Virus record (IMG/VR): IMGVR_UViG_3300042863_002274
Reading direction: 5' to 3' (one strand)
DNA from: a virus
DNA: 64,000 nt
The notes under the pieces are model-generated. The model did no database searches and was not told where the DNA came from. It saw only the letters and a program-made list of their open reading frames with translations. Position 1 is the first letter of the stretch, and each line of letters begins with the position of its first letter. Below are positions 3,292-58,349 of this stretch, piece by piece. Position numbers and translations under genes: made by a program.

Positions 3292-3651
3292 TTATCCCAT
3301 ACCATCATGGCTTTGTTGCGCTTCTACAGGATTAACCCAAGACAATGTTTCTTCATCCCACAAATAGAAATTGTCGTCATCTGGTCTGGGAAATGGTGGC
3401 TCCCAGTCAAATGATTCACTTAGTAACCATGAAGGGAACGGAGAAGGGGATATGAAAACATCACTCACTTCGTCATACGTAAATCCGATGCCCGCAAACT
3501 GTTTACGGAAGTTGTTGTTGTACGAAGTTTGCACCCATGTTCCCCCAAGGTTGTCCATCAACCACTGGTAACCTTCGTCGGGGTCATTGTTGTCACCTAC
3601 GGTTACGCGTAGAACTATATTGTTTTCATCTATTTCTGCCCAGTGTGCCAT
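3292..3651 (-). CDS. Tail fibre-associated small protein
   Basis: Likely start is the ATG at 3651 (MAHWAEIDENNIVLRV), overlapping the upstream stop as TAATG; WVQTSYN...FAGIG...YD...FI.P.P.PSW motifs. Confidence 0.7.
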   Translation of the reverse strand: MAHWAEIDENNIVLRVTVGDNNDPDEGYQWLMDNLGGTWVQTSYNNNFRKQFAGIGFTYDEVSDVFISPSPFPSWLLSESFDWEPPFPRPDDDNFYLWDEETLSWVNPVEAQQSHDGMG

Positions 3652-4760
3652 TATATTGCGTAACTCACAATCACTATTCCGCTTCCTCCAGCGCCGGAAG
3701 CAACTCCGCCTGACGCATTCCTGCATCCACCACCACCACTTGCTGTGTTCGCAGCAGCACTTACCCCGGTTGTATTCCCGGTAGTTCCGTTTCCGCCAAC
3801 GCCACTTCCCCCGGTTCCAGCAATGTTGTCGCCACCGCCTCCTCCTCCACCGCAATAAAAGGTACTCAAAAAAGAAACTCCTGCGCCACCGTTTCCACTA
3901 TTCACGCCAGAAACCGCGTTTCCTCCTGCTCCAATAAACCCACCGCCACCACCAGCAAGATAATAGCCGTTTGTTTGATTTGCACCACTGCCGCCAGCGT
4001 TGCCTTGCGTTGCCGAGCCTCCCGCCGAAAAGTTATTCAAGTTAACACCACTAGACCCACCGCCACCTGAACCACCAGAAGAGCCAGTGGTAGGAGCATT
4101 GGCATTATAATAGCCCCCGCCTCCGCCTCCTGTTGCCGTGTAGGTGCCACCATTTACGGTTGCAACAGTATTTACTCCGTTTGCTCCTTGACCGCCAAAG
4201 TAAGAAGTCTGACGCGCTCCGCCTCCCCCTATTGTCGCAACAAGAGAACCACTAGCGGGAAGGGTTTGGTCAACGGCTGTCAATCCACCGGCACCACCCC
4301 CGCCACCAACGGAGGAGCCCCCAGCCCCTCCCCCTGCATGTACGCGCACATTGACCGAAGTGGCTGAACTACGAACACTCGTTAAGTTCCCGTTTGCTGT
4401 CATGAAATGGTAGCGCCTACCGCCGCTGTCAATAAATGAACTTCCTCCAGTTATGCCAGTGCCGACTGTTATTGAGAAGGCTTGACTTACTGAACCACCA
4501 GCATTCGTTGCAGTTATTGTAAAAGAATAAGAAGAAGGAGAGGTTGGTGTGCCTGTTAACGCACCCGTAGATGAGTTAAGAGAAATGCCTGCCGGCAAAG
4601 ACCCAGACGTTACCGAGTATGTTGGTGGAGGGGTGCCAGACGCAGTTACTGCATCAGAATAAGCAATTGTTAAATTCATTGTTGAACTGATGGTATTGTC
4701 AGTCCAAGCAGGGGCAATTATTACTGCGCCAGAAGAAACAATGCCAATAGTTGACGGCAT
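3651..4760 (-). CDS. Ig-like domain plus glycine-rich tail fibre/adhesin
   Basis: Likely start MPSTIG at 4760 (TAATG overlap); SGSLPAGISLNSSTGALTGTPT Ig-type repeat, then GGGG-rich region ending GGSGIVIVSY. Confidence 0.75.
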   Translation of the reverse strand: MPSTIGIVSSGAVIIAPAWTDNTISSTMNLTIAYSDAVTASGTPPPTYSVTSGSLPAGISLNSSTGALTGTPTSPSSYSFTITATNAGGSVSQAFSITVGTGITGGSSFIDSGGRRYHFMTANGNLTSVRSSATSVNVRVHAGGGAGGSSVGGGGGAGGLTAVDQTLPASGSLVATIGGGGARQTSYFGGQGANGVNTVATVNGGTYTATGGGGGGYYNANAPTTGSSGGSGGGGSSGVNLNNFSAGGSATQGNAGGSGANQTNGYYLAGGGGGFIGAGGNAVSGVNSGNGGAGVSFLSTFYCGGGGGGGDNIAGTGGSGVGGNGTTGNTTGVSAAANTASGGGGCRNASGGVASGAGGSGIVIVSYAI

Positions 4761-56144: not shown

Positions 56145-56528
56145 TCACCCCAACCCTGAAATGTGGGAATGAATTTCGTGCTCGTCGCAAGACGTATAAC
56201 GCATTCCTGATGTCTCCACCTTGCGTGGATATCCTGGTTCACCGCATTTCTCACATACGCTGAAAGAATCCTGCTCGATAGTAAGAATCAGTGAATTGAC
56301 TTTACTATATTCTTCCATGTTTGAAAGATTGAAGTAAAAACGTAGTCCACCAAACTTTTCTTTTATTTGCACAATCGTGTAATTCGGGTCCTGCGTAAAT
56401 AAAACAGTATCGCATTTCCTTATTAATTCCGCCCAGCCATAACCACAGTCAATGGTTGCCGGTATGCCGTCAGCAAAACGGTCAAGGATGTTTTGGAAAT
56501 CCGGGTCTGAACCTATGTTGATATTCAT
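56145..56528 (-). CDS. Hypothetical phage protein with Zn-finger-like C-terminus
   Basis: QIKEKFGGLRFY...CEKCG...CDEH; TAGGAT-N6-ATG. Confidence 0.75.
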   Translation of the reverse strand: MNINIGSDPDFQNILDRFADGIPATIDCGYGWAELIRKCDTVLFTQDPNYTIVQIKEKFGGLRFYFNLSNMEEYSKVNSLILTIEQDSFSVCEKCGEPGYPRKVETSGMRYTSCDEHEIHSHISGLG

Positions 56529-56548: not shown

Positions 56549-56564
56549 GCGCGTCGGGCAGGGC
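56549..56564 (-). pseudogene. 3' remnant of disrupted tRNA-Arg
   Basis: GCCCTGC-CCGACGC-GC; CCGACGC pairs perfectly with GCGTCGG at 57149-57155. Confidence 0.75.
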
Positions 56565-56581
56565 TTAGGCTTTGTAAGATT

Positions 56582-56656
56582 TGGTGCCCCATGAGAGAAT
56601 CGAACTCCCGTAAAATGCTTAGAAGGCATTGACTTTATCCACTAAGTTAATGGGGC
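56582..56656 (-). tRNA. tRNA-Arg(UCU), intact, CCA encoded
   Basis: GCCCCAT/ATGGGGC acceptor stem; AATGC-CTTCTAA-GCATT anticodon arm; GGGAG-TTCGATT-CTCTC T arm; ACCA. Confidence 0.93.
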
Positions 56657-57076
56657 CCGATATGAGTGCTTTGCCCAGTTAAATTGTTGTGCCGTTCTAA
56701 TTTTATGACAATTTGCACATACAATATCGCATTTTTTAATTTCTTCGTATGCCGCTTTGTCTCTTCCAGTATTTACCAAGTGAGACACATTGTACTCTTT
56801 TTCCCCACGATGGTCAAATTCTAAAACACGGATATCACTATTTCCGCAGTCCATACATGATTTATCTGCTAACCATTCAATGAATTCTTTTTGAATCCTT
56901 AATTTTCTATCGTACGCTTTGTCGATATAGTATTTTTTATTTTCTTCATAATGCGTCTTAAAATAAACCTTCCTACACTCCCTACAGGAGCTTTGTAACC
57001 CATCTTTTTTTCCTACATTTTTAGCAAAACAATTTTTAGGTTTTACGGTTTTGCACGATGGGCATTCTTTGGTCAT
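56642..57076 (-). CDS. HNH endonuclease inserted in tRNA locus
   Basis: CPSC..CREC, CMDCG, LEFDH and CDIVCANCH; TACAAT-N6-ATG at 57076; visibly AT-rich. Confidence 0.88.
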   Translation of the reverse strand: MTKECPSCKTVKPKNCFAKNVGKKDGLQSSCRECRKVYFKTHYEENKKYYIDKAYDRKLRIQKEFIEWLADKSCMDCGNSDIRVLEFDHRGEKEYNVSHLVNTGRDKAAYEEIKKCDIVCANCHKIRTAQQFNWAKHSYRAPLT

Positions 57077-57117
57077 ATTTAAATTGTACACATTTGGGAT
57101 TCTGACCATTGTTACTT

Positions 57118-57155
57118 TTAGAAGTCTGTTGCCTTATCCCTTGGGCCACCGACGC
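57118..57155 (-). pseudogene. 5' half of disrupted tRNA-Arg(UCU)
   Basis: GCGTCGG-TG-GCCCAAGGGATAAGGC-A-ACAGA-CT-TCT-AA, then tRNA similarity stops. Confidence 0.85.
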
Positions 57156-57724
57156 TAGAGGGTTGGTTTGTTCTTGCGAGAATGATACAGGTTTCTCTTT
57201 TGTTCGTTCAGTTTGTCCCGGTTCACGCGGTTGTACTCCTTCATGGACTCAATGTTTTTCCCTTTCCTTTTTAAGTCATTGATTCGTTTGCATTCCCTGC
57301 AGACCCTATATTCTTCACCAATTTGCCTGCCCTGTTTCTTTACATATACAAGAGGTTCGAACTCCTCAAAAGAATGACCCTTTTTACAGTGAGTCTGTTT
57401 TTTCGTCTGAGGGGGATTTCTTCCTTTTTTGAACATGTCCTTCATGTTTCCTGAATTTGTATCTAGAAAAAGATGTTCGGGGTTAACGCACGGCGGGTTG
57501 TCGCAATGGTGGCAGACAAGTAGGCCCTTTGGTACTTCACCTATATGAAAAAGGTAGCTTGAAACATGAGCCCCAATCGCCGGCCTGTCTTGGTAGTACT
57601 TGAACGAACCATACCCCTTACTCGTTGGTGCGCCAGTCCAAATCCAGCAATCTGGAAATTTATCGTTACCAGACTTATCGACCTTCTGAAAAAATCTTTC
57701 AATGAGAGGCATATTCTTAGCCAT
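57155..57724 (-). CDS. HNH homing endonuclease
   Basis: CWIWTG..GYG, VCHHCDNPPCVNPEHL..NMKD and THCKKGH; start MAKNM at 57724. Confidence 0.9.
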   Translation of the reverse strand: MAKNMPLIERFFQKVDKSGNDKFPDCWIWTGAPTSKGYGSFKYYQDRPAIGAHVSSYLFHIGEVPKGLLVCHHCDNPPCVNPEHLFLDTNSGNMKDMFKKGRNPPQTKKQTHCKKGHSFEEFEPLVYVKKQGRQIGEEYRVCRECKRINDLKRKGKNIESMKEYNRVNRDKLNEQKRNLYHSRKNKPTL

Positions 57725-58349
57725 TTTTTTTCTTTTCGTTTCTAATTCGCATACACTCCGCGCACGTCCGATACTTTCGCCCACTTTTTTTCACGAACCA
57801 CTTCTCCCCATAAACACTAAAGTCATGACCTTTTCTACAGTGGTTTAGTTTTTTAGGCTCTATTCCCTTTTCCTCGCGTCTGCGCGCAAGTCGCTCTTTC
57901 TTCCATCTTTTGTGACAAGCCTTACAATCCCGTGTGACAAAACCGGTATGTTTGCTGATTCTGTGGATTGTGTTTTCCTCATCATAGAGATGACCGTGTT
58001 TGCAGTGCGTCTTTCTGCTCTCTTTATGATTCCCGTGCGTAACCGAATAGCGCTGATTGTGAGAACGGGTCTCAGCTTCTAAATGGTCCGGACGAACACA
58101 TGGAGGGTTGTTACATGTATGGCAAACTTCGCGCCCTTCTGGGACTCGCTTGCCATTTGCTTTTTGCCAGCTATAAACATGGGCACCAAGTTTCTTGTTT
58201 ACCCCATCTTGCTTGATTGCAAAGTGACCATATTTTTTCACAACATAGCCAGTCCATTCCCAACAGTCTGGATAATCTGGATTAGGTCCAGATTTGTCTA
58301 CCTTCTCCCAGAAACGTTCTTCTTCTGGTATTGGTTTTCTTCCTGCCAT
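57717..58349 (-). CDS. HNH homing endonuclease
   Basis: CWEWTG, VCHTCNNPPCVRPDHL and two HCxxGH..CxxC repeats. Confidence 0.9.
   Translation of the reverse strand: MAGRKPIPEEERFWEKVDKSGPNPDYPDCWEWTGYVVKKYGHFAIKQDGVNKKLGAHVYSWQKANGKRVPEGREVCHTCNNPPCVRPDHLEAETRSHNQRYSVTHGNHKESRKTHCKHGHLYDEENTIHRISKHTGFVTRDCKACHKRWKKERLARRREEKGIEPKKLNHCRKGHDFSVYGEKWFVKKSGRKYRTCAECMRIRNEKKKNG

Follow-up and report, generated by a model that had tools for sequence, protein, structure and literature searches.

The window analysed here is a 64,000-nucleotide stretch of viral DNA (IMG/VR virus record IMGVR_UViG_3300042863_002274), part of an 83.9-kb viral contig that is estimated to be 53% complete. On its minus strand lies what is very probably a mobile two-gene cassette, composed of a free-standing HNH homing endonuclease gene and a tRNA-Arg(UCU) gene, that has inserted into a resident tRNA-Arg(UCU) gene and partly deleted it. 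Comparison with related phages supports the view that this would be a homing endonuclease with a 'bring your own replacement' strategy. The parts of the cassette and the remains of the resident gene are as follows, listed from 5' to 3' along the minus strand.

57118..57155, minus strand: 5' stub of the resident tRNA-Arg(UCU), nucleotides 1-38, from the acceptor strand GCGTCGG to the anticodon loop CTTCTAA; the same in sister contigs L002 and L038-L044
56563..57117, minus strand: inserted cassette of 555 nucleotides, in place of resident tRNA nucleotides 39-60, delimited by alignment of filled and empty alleles
57083..57088, minus strand: TACAAT, a -10-like hexamer read from the letters, 6 nucleotides 5' of the HNH ATG
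56642..57076, minus strand: HNH endonuclease gene, 144 amino acids plus stop codon (PHROG 2255, motif)
56582..56656, minus strand: carried tRNA-Arg(UCU), 72 nucleotides plus encoded CCA (ARAGORN, Rfam RF00005)
56563..56581, minus strand: 19-nucleotide tail of the insert, with no source assigned, not in the empty allele
56550..56562, minus strand: 3' stub of the resident tRNA, nucleotides 61-73 (3' T-stem strand, 3' acceptor strand and discriminator G), the same in L002

Relatives of the locus were sought among viral contigs with two queries, the protein encoded by the downstream flanking gene (56145..56528, minus strand; 127 amino acids, no family) and the first 25 nucleotides of the 5' stub. 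Seven distinct sister contigs (records L002-L004 and L038-L044, which overlap) carry an intact 73-nucleotide tRNA-Arg(UCU) with the same first 25 nucleotides and the same neighbouring genes. The 38-nucleotide 5' stub is 100% identical to nucleotides 1-38 of this tRNA, and the 3' remnant, CCTGCCCGACGC plus the discriminator G, is identical to nucleotides 61-73 of the intact L002 tRNA. Chance is excluded because both stubs exactly match a real intact gene in relatives. Exactly 22 nucleotides (39-60) are absent from the resident tRNA of the window. These are the 3' anticodon-stem strand, the variable loop, the 5' T-stem strand and the T loop, and therefore no RNA processing can restore the resident gene.

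Much of this had been anticipated by a first-pass annotation made from the letters of the window. It described the 5' half of a tRNA-Arg(UCU) ending after the anticodon loop, which the sister contigs match exactly, and the orphan 3' end of the same tRNA, which is present and, at 13 nucleotides, longer than was noted. It also recognised that the old gene lacks the segment from the 3' anticodon stem through the T loop, now delimited as nucleotides 39-60. Its proposal that relatives might hold an empty allele with an intact GCGTCGG-type tRNA-Arg is borne out by the seven sister contigs.

The locus is thus polymorphic for presence or absence of the insert at one precise site, filled in the window and in contig L051 and empty in the seven sister contigs. 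The downstream flank of the window is 93% identical to that of L002 over 2 kb, and the downstream 127-amino-acid protein is 95% identical in L002-L004, where the tRNA is intact. The upstream flank, an HNH_3 gene, is only 74-76% identical between the window and L002. L051 is an independently assembled 803-bp contig from another sample; it repeats both insert junctions of the window with about a dozen single-nucleotide polymorphisms (SNPs), and misassembly, which the first-pass annotation had allowed for, is therefore ruled out. Its upstream flank is a mosaic, window-like at first and then L002-like for the last ~30 nucleotides before the tRNA, which hints at recombination tracts around the element. 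The 19-nucleotide tail of the insert is also found in L051, with one SNP, and folding of this tail gives no stable structure. The GC content is 0.36 in the 555-nucleotide insert and 0.35 in the open reading frame of the 144-amino-acid HNH protein (with dips of 0.32-0.35), compared to 0.45-0.46 in the flanks. This low GC content relative to the surroundings is a foreign composition, and it counts in favour of a mobile cassette.

The second tRNA of the locus, proposed at the outset to be complete and divergent in sequence and to overlap the end of the HNH gene, is confirmed on all three points. ARAGORN calls one tRNA-Arg(tct) here, its sole tRNA call within the window, and this gene scores 64.3 bits with the Rfam model RF00005 (cut-off 29). 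The minimum-free-energy fold is a cloverleaf (-20.8 kcal/mol) with the anticodon loop CTTCTAA, and the CCA end is encoded. The first 15 nucleotides of this tRNA are also the last four codons and stop codon of the HNH open reading frame. The sequence GGAT in its D loop is shared with the resident tRNA, and we take it to be consistent with the A20 identity element from what is known of E. coli arginyl-tRNA synthetase. The carried tRNA is a putative working substitute for the resident gene. In the 39 long open reading frames of the window, arginine is most often encoded by AGA (414 of 1079, or 38%; 22.6 per thousand codons), and no other tRNA-Arg was found on the 83.9-kb contig, where the remaining finds are a tRNA-Met and one weak tRNA-like match. 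This codon usage and the lack of a second tRNA-Arg suggest a need for the carried tRNA. The tRNA-Met(CAT) lies outside the window, with the weak tRNA-like match 1.1 kb before it (G000:C1:80509-80585, 81711-81784); the weak match scores 33 bits and is not called by ARAGORN.

A protein search with the HNH sequence gave 131 relatives, and contigs were taken for the six closest examined (P0001, P0002, P0003, P0005, P0006 and P0007; 58-97% identity). All six HNH open reading frames run into an overlapping tRNA-Arg(UCU) of the cassette lineage. The cassette-type tRNAs are 75-97% identical among themselves and 54-64% identical to resident tRNAs, and they split into the same two groups as their HNH proteins, a congruence that points to co-inheritance. 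The peptide encoded by the overlap ends in ...APLT* in one group and ...MPH* in the other. Because the overlap frame differs between the groups, the fusion is a matter of gene packing and not of a conserved peptide. The nuclease and tRNA genes, which had been described as welded together in the window, overlap throughout the family.

Each of these contexts save L054 shows recognisable parts of a different resident tRNA-Arg(UCU) beside the cassette, as listed here by contig.

L045: resident acceptor GTCTCAG; 5' part to nucleotide 38, 3' part from about nucleotide 46
L052: acceptor GCTTTCA in the filled allele (GCTTCTA in empty alleles); 5' part to nucleotide 47, 3' part from nucleotide 48
L055: acceptor GCCTCTA; 5' part to nucleotide 47, and of the 3' side the acceptor 3' strand alone
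L059 and L060: acceptor GCCTCTA; 5' part to nucleotide 47 with its 3' end decayed, 3' part from nucleotide 48
L054: resident acceptor not recognisable; no clear tRNA half upstream

The invaded tRNA-Arg(UCU) genes represent at least four sequence types. The flanks of the window, L045 and L052 have no tblastx similarity to one another at 1e-5, and the cassette thus occupies at least three phage backgrounds without detectable similarity. The suggestion that the same HNH-tRNA unit might be found elsewhere has accordingly been borne out in unrelated phages, within tRNA-Arg(UCU) genes, with the exception of L054. Exact-peptide scans for the HNH protein and a scan for an exact 26-mer of the new tRNA gave no matches among viral contigs, and a degenerate 24-mer scan retrieved one viral contig and three metagenome contigs.

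Matched empty alleles exist in three further lineages, with flank identities of 75-98%. The filled allele L052 is paired with L063, L069, L073 and L077 (flanks 76-87% identical), L059 with L071, L075 and L076 (98% and 91% for the two flanks), and L045 with L088 and L091 (approximately 91%). Recurrent insertion into a conserved target, accompanied by empty alleles, is the pattern to be expected of a homing element and not of one-off illegitimate recombination.

Several details of individual alleles are worth recording. The 570-nucleotide insert of L052 is bounded by a 6-nucleotide direct repeat, GTTATT (L052:2962-2967, 3532-3537). This hexamer occurs once in the empty alleles L063, L069 and L073, and no such repeat is present at the window insert; it could reflect microhomology or target duplication. 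In contigs L088 and L091, which are syntenic with L045, the tRNA-Arg(UCU) agrees with that of L045 in acceptor and D arm and departs from it in the anticodon arm (loop TTTCTAC) and T loop. This tRNA may be a resistant allele or the product of some other exchange. Three cassette copies have a segment of ~45 nucleotides that separates the new tRNA from the resident T arm (L052:3500-3567; L059:2007-2075; L054:1997-2062). This segment and the resident 3' acceptor strand combine in a tRNA-like structure with a 10-bp closing stem (z-scores -2.5 to -4.1), whose 5' strand shows co-variation with the resident acceptor (T:A in L052, C:G in L059). The window copy is without this segment. As a real tRNA, this extra element was rejected: neither ARAGORN nor Rfam calls it, and its central loop is not conserved.

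Members of the HNH family also occur in cultured phages. Megablast of the locus against these genomes gave no matches, and sensitive blastn returned short HNH and tRNA pieces only. With tblastn the family was found in 284 GenBank phage records, all at less than 60% identity, and ten of these were opened. The choice of JimJam and Francesca was guided by a tRNA flagged beforehand at the match; no such flag guided the choice of the remaining eight records. The arrangements in the ten records are as follows.

PegLeg (Met), Wofford (Met), JimJam (Pro), Francesca (Phe) and KIL2 (Gly): HNH open reading frame overlapping the downstream tRNA gene by 10-38 nucleotides
Bonray and Douge: tRNA 26-30 nucleotides downstream of the HNH gene
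JonJames: HNH gene within a tRNA array
Daredevil and PMG1: HNH gene not near any tRNA

The HNH proteins of the actinophages (PegLeg gp102, Wofford gp171, JimJam gp109, Francesca gp152 and Bonray gp168) and gp49 of Pseudomonas phage KIL2 belong to the same family as the window protein. They are about 37-45% identical to it and conserve all catalytic and zinc residues, but their partner tRNAs are Met, Pro, Phe and Gly, not Arg. Streptomyces phage Wofford (NC_048722.1) is especially informative. An unannotated 37-nucleotide 5' half of a tRNA-Met (AGCGGAT...CTCATAA; L095:531-567) stops exactly after the anticodon loop and is followed by the HNH gene gp171, whose 3' end is overlapped by a tRNA-Met. 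An intact tRNA-Met sits just before the stub. Read from its sequence, the geometry in Wofford is that of the window with another isotype.

The HNH gene of the window is taken to start at 57076, which gives 144 amino acids and is the start conserved in homologues; a longer form of 155 amino acids begins at 57109. The 144-amino-acid protein matches PHROG 2255, 'HNH endonuclease', with E=7.5e-30. Alignments with 13 and 31 homologues reveal an N-terminal CxxC...CxxC zinc ribbon and an HNH motif. Residues C74, C77, D88, H89, C120, C123 and H124 are invariant in both alignments, while C5, C8, C116 and N122 are invariant in the first (A1) and at least 90% conserved in the second (A2). Profile searches return HNH and endonuclease VII families only, with no GIY-YIG family. 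There is no Pfam match in a search to E<=10 and no meaningful sequence match in the PDB. The AlphaFold2 model has a predicted local distance difference test score (pLDDT) of 94. The best Foldseek rows for this model are weak (E>0.1), and many of them are HNH nucleases (Hpy99I, PacI, Cap5, Gme HNH). VIA-align also gives weak matches, with Z=3.0 for Gme HNH and, limited to residues 1-40, Z=5.7 for Hpy99I. Hpy99I is a beta-beta-alpha-metal enzyme, and the match is confined to its zinc-ribbon part. With structure matches this weak, it is PHROG 2255 and the conserved motif that support the HNH assignment. The original description of an AT-rich HNH gene agrees with its GC content, its PHROG match and its motif residues.

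The gene had also been credited with its own TACAAT promoter. The hexamer is indeed present, but a sigma-70 consensus scan made no promoter call there and found no -35 hexamer 16-18 nucleotides away. Homologous cassettes have good promoters at the equivalent place, TTGACA-17-TATAAT in L052 and TTGCAA-18-TATAAA in L045, and in the window copy TACAAT may likewise be a working promoter. In all cassette copies a -10-like hexamer lies 6-8 nucleotides before the HNH start and no Shine-Dalgarno sequence is present (window 57077-57088; L045:2985-3000; L052:2990-3000). A hexamer so near the start, combined with the lack of a Shine-Dalgarno sequence, suggests that the HNH mRNA may be leaderless.

Comparison of invaded and carried tRNAs offers a candidate for the recognition site of the nuclease. 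Around the anticodon loop all invaded tRNAs read GA-CTTCTAA-TC, and their T arms have AGGTTCGA in common. At the anticodon loop the cassette tRNAs instead have GC-CTTCTAA-GC or CT-CTTCTAA-AG, and they differ from the invaded tRNAs in the variable loop and T stem. A site spanning the anticodon stem, variable loop and T stem is thus predicted. Empty alleles would possess it, the insert would interrupt it in filled alleles, and the cassette tRNA would have an altered version. We infer that the HNH protein cuts the resident tRNA gene, and the carried tRNA gene is predicted to resist cleavage.

Homing of the cassette can be pictured on this basis. During co-infection, the endonuclease from a cassette-carrying phage would bind a naive tRNA-Arg(UCU) gene through its anticodon arm, variable loop and T stem, and would nick or cut it near tRNA position 38/39. 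Resection of the break would account for the loss of nucleotides 39-60 in the window, and repair by copying the carrier genome would use the tRNA halves and the neighbouring DNA as homology. The end state is seen directly in the window, where the resident gene consists of two stubs around the cassette. The cassette tRNA would then take over AGA decoding at little cost to the phage. Just outside the shared anticodon loop it differs from the invaded tRNAs (31:39 is C-G and not A-T), as it does in the variable loop and T stem, and these differences would presumably prevent recutting. The split resident gene would likewise not be cut again. The tRNA-Arg(UCU) genes of unrelated phages are alike, and they could provide both a conserved target and portable homology arms.

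With modest confidence, we lean towards a more complete version of this scheme, in which the cassette is a self-contained 'cut-and-replace' drive. The HNH protein would recognise the tRNA-Arg(UCU) genes of many phages, the fused tRNA would be the escape allele and the tRNA halves would be the homology arms. The locus itself would be a battleground for two endonuclease families, the other being the HNH_3 family described below.

Some observations weigh against an invasion of tRNA genes driven by HNH cleavage. The left junction varies between cassette clades, lying after tRNA nucleotide 38 in the window and L045 and after nucleotide 47 in L052, L055 and L059, and a single fixed cleavage site is not established. 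In L054 no tRNA half can be recognised in the 5' stub, and among cultured phages the family members of Daredevil and PMG1 are not beside tRNAs. The catalytic half of the HNH protein has no Pfam model and no confident structural match, and the window copy is without a detectable full promoter. Contig L178 (Ga0247723_1006311) has the cassette tRNA and a 3' stub without the HNH gene. Its reverse strand, at ~1489-1600, has a cassette-type tRNA-Arg with the same sequence as the one in L045 and, 3' of it, a resident T-arm/acceptor stub (acceptor 3' strand CTGGGAC); upstream of the cassette tRNA there is neither an HNH gene nor a 5' stub. The nuclease gene of L178 may have been lost after invasion.

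Other explanations deserve consideration. The carried tRNA might be the selected cargo, resisting a host tRNA-cleaving defence or suiting AGA-rich genes, for example, with the HNH gene as its vehicle and the loss of the old gene incidental. There is precedent in SegB, which spreads or amplifies neighbouring tRNA genes (tRNA-Tyr) and defeats a tRNA-cleaving defence (PMC2330249, PMC13096335). In addition, the cassette-type tRNA (GCCYCAT...) occurs without this HNH gene as the tRNA-Arg of L061, L108, L128, L130 and L176, related phages have differing tRNA-Arg sequence types at one locus, and AGA is the major arginine codon. We nevertheless consider this explanation unlikely. No spacer separates the HNH gene from the fused tRNA in any close relative, the cassette lies inside the competing tRNA gene and not beside it, and no host or defence system is known for the window phage. 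Empty alleles are also frequent in close relatives, a pattern more in keeping with a selfish element than with an allele of strong benefit to its carrier. It is still less probable that the cassette moves by homologous or illegitimate recombination between tRNA genes without HNH cutting, leaving the HNH protein as a passenger or with some other target. Independent insertions in unrelated phages all lie in the anticodon-arm/variable-loop region of tRNA-Arg(UCU), and the 43%-identical Wofford relative lies at the equivalent position (after nucleotide 38) of a tRNA-Met. Catalytic residues are conserved across the HNH family, and presence/absence polymorphism among near-identical phages is typical of homing. 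These regularities stand against the 30-40 nucleotides of homology that the tRNA halves could offer to recombination, to the GTTATT repeat around the L052 insert and the differing junction positions between clades.

Two further explanations are very improbable indeed. Group I introns with endonuclease open reading frames are known in bacterial tRNA anticodon loops, and L052 keeps every resident nucleotide across both sides of its insert, so that the element might be thought to be removed from RNA like an intron, restoring the old tRNA. Splicing cannot restore the tRNA of the window, however, which is without 22 nucleotides of the old gene. The T arm is lost from L055, and both L055 and L059 show decay of the 3' anticodon-stem strand. 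A cmscan of three cassette copies against Rfam at E<=1 returns only tRNA and chance rows, with no intron family. Most of the insert's non-coding part is taken up by a canonical tRNA, and this part is not long enough to hold a ribozyme core. The intron reading was rejected for its missing exon nucleotides and lack of an Rfam intron match. A chimeric contig would be a natural concern for a metagenome-assembled viral sequence estimated to be about half complete. Hardly any weight can be given to this concern, since an independent contig from another sample has both junctions with SNPs, and four other lineages, as well as finished cultured-phage genomes, show the architecture too. A mobile HNH-tRNA cassette in a broken tRNA-Arg(UCU) gene is thus the reading that we retain.

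Upstream of the 5' stub, the locus contains additional endonuclease genes.

60279-58354, minus strand: class II ribonucleotide reductase gene
57717..58349, minus strand: second HNH_3-type endonuclease gene, 210 amino acids (Pfam HNH_3, E=7.4e-11)
57155..57784, minus strand: HNH_3-type endonuclease gene, open reading frame of 209 amino acids (Pfam HNH_3, PHROG 826)

The G of the TAG stop codon of the 209-amino-acid HNH_3 gene is also G1 of the resident tRNA; in this way the resident tRNA, too, is joined to an endonuclease gene. HNH_3 homologues with 56-85% identity have a tRNA-Arg(UCU) directly 3' of them in many viral contigs (L061:1-492; L096-L130). At least three tRNA-Arg types are joined to this family, including the cassette type GCCYCAT, and the downstream gene is sometimes shared. 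The HNH_3 genes stand in tandem in the window, whereas L002 has one between its ribonucleotide reductase gene and the tRNA. From these arrangements, HNH_3 looks like a second endonuclease family that competes at the same tRNA locus.

Unusual tRNAs were also seen on two of the contigs collected here. In L110 (594-700), only the first 8 nucleotides of a cassette-type tRNA-Arg are present 3' of an HNH_3 gene, joined to an apparent tRNA-Asn(GTT) body, and ARAGORN calls no tRNA in this region. L010, a 187-kb viral contig with a distant relative of the 127-amino-acid gene, has an ARAGORN tRNA with the anticodon CTA (labelled Pyl, that is, an amber suppressor). It also has two tRNAs with irregular anticodon loops, one of which holds the four-base 'ttag' (the three tRNAs are at L010:3029-3101, 3356-3432 and 4258-4331). 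Stop-codon recoding is possible in L010.

To our knowledge, homing endonuclease genes are thought to persist within useful genes only through self-splicing introns or inteins, or else to lie between genes. The cassette would represent a third route, in which the element breaks its target and carries a putative working and presumably uncuttable copy joined to the nuclease gene. Joined in this way, the two cannot be separated by recombination. If the proposed cleavage specificity is true, it would explain both the abundance of HNH genes in phage tRNA arrays and the mosaic tRNA sets of phages, with their stubs and duplicates. It would also mean that a universally conserved RNA gene, serving as target and as homology, lets a selfish element pass from one phage to an unrelated one, and that such elements are a source of natural nucleases with tRNA-gene specificities. 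For annotation, it would serve as a warning that tRNA fragments beside HNH genes are invasion scars. The cultured relatives in Wofford, JimJam and PegLeg are a possible experimental system.

Full-text literature searches found no paper on an HNH gene with a fused replacement tRNA of the same isotype as the tRNA gene that it splits; Pope et al. 2014 was outside the reach of these searches. HNH genes are the commonest coding sequences in mycobacterial and mycobacteriophage tRNA arrays, and the same sources credit to Pope et al. 2014 a role of HNH genes in the diversity of tRNA repertoires (PMC5966550, PMC6409571). The system to which the first-pass annotation likened the cassette is T4 SegB, a GIY-YIG enzyme whose site includes the T-psi-C motif of tRNA genes and which, in co-infection, drives the preferential inheritance of itself and nearby tRNAs (PMC2330249). 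SegB homologues are enriched beside tRNAs and can amplify a tRNA gene, thereby defeating a defence system (PMC13096335). The comparison is an analogy: both are free-standing phage endonucleases associated with tRNAs across phages and SegB has a tRNA-gene motif (the T-psi-C stem-loop) in its site. It does not extend to the nuclease itself, which belongs to the GIY-YIG superfamily in SegB and is an HNH protein of PHROG 2255 in the window. Moreover, segB lies between intact tRNA genes and the cassette HNH gene lies inside one; a destroyed target with a fused replacement of the same isotype has not been described for SegB.

Bacterial group I introns with endonuclease open reading frames occur in tRNA anticodon loops, and they resemble the cassette as endonuclease-bearing insertions in the anticodon region. 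Unlike these introns, the cassette has no ribozyme signature, its 'exons' are not intact, and it brings a spare gene in place of splicing. Another parallel is intronless homing by T4 SegF, SegG and MobE, which proceeds with co-conversion of flanking genes and in which the carrier allele is protected by sequence differences. There, as is proposed for the cassette, a free-standing endonuclease cuts a relative near its own site, and the local allele is replaced by the endonuclease's own neighbourhood. The targets of SegF, SegG and MobE are protein-coding genes that are intact in the carrier. In the cassette, by contrast, an RNA gene is physically split, and its function would be supplied by a second, divergent copy within the mobile unit.

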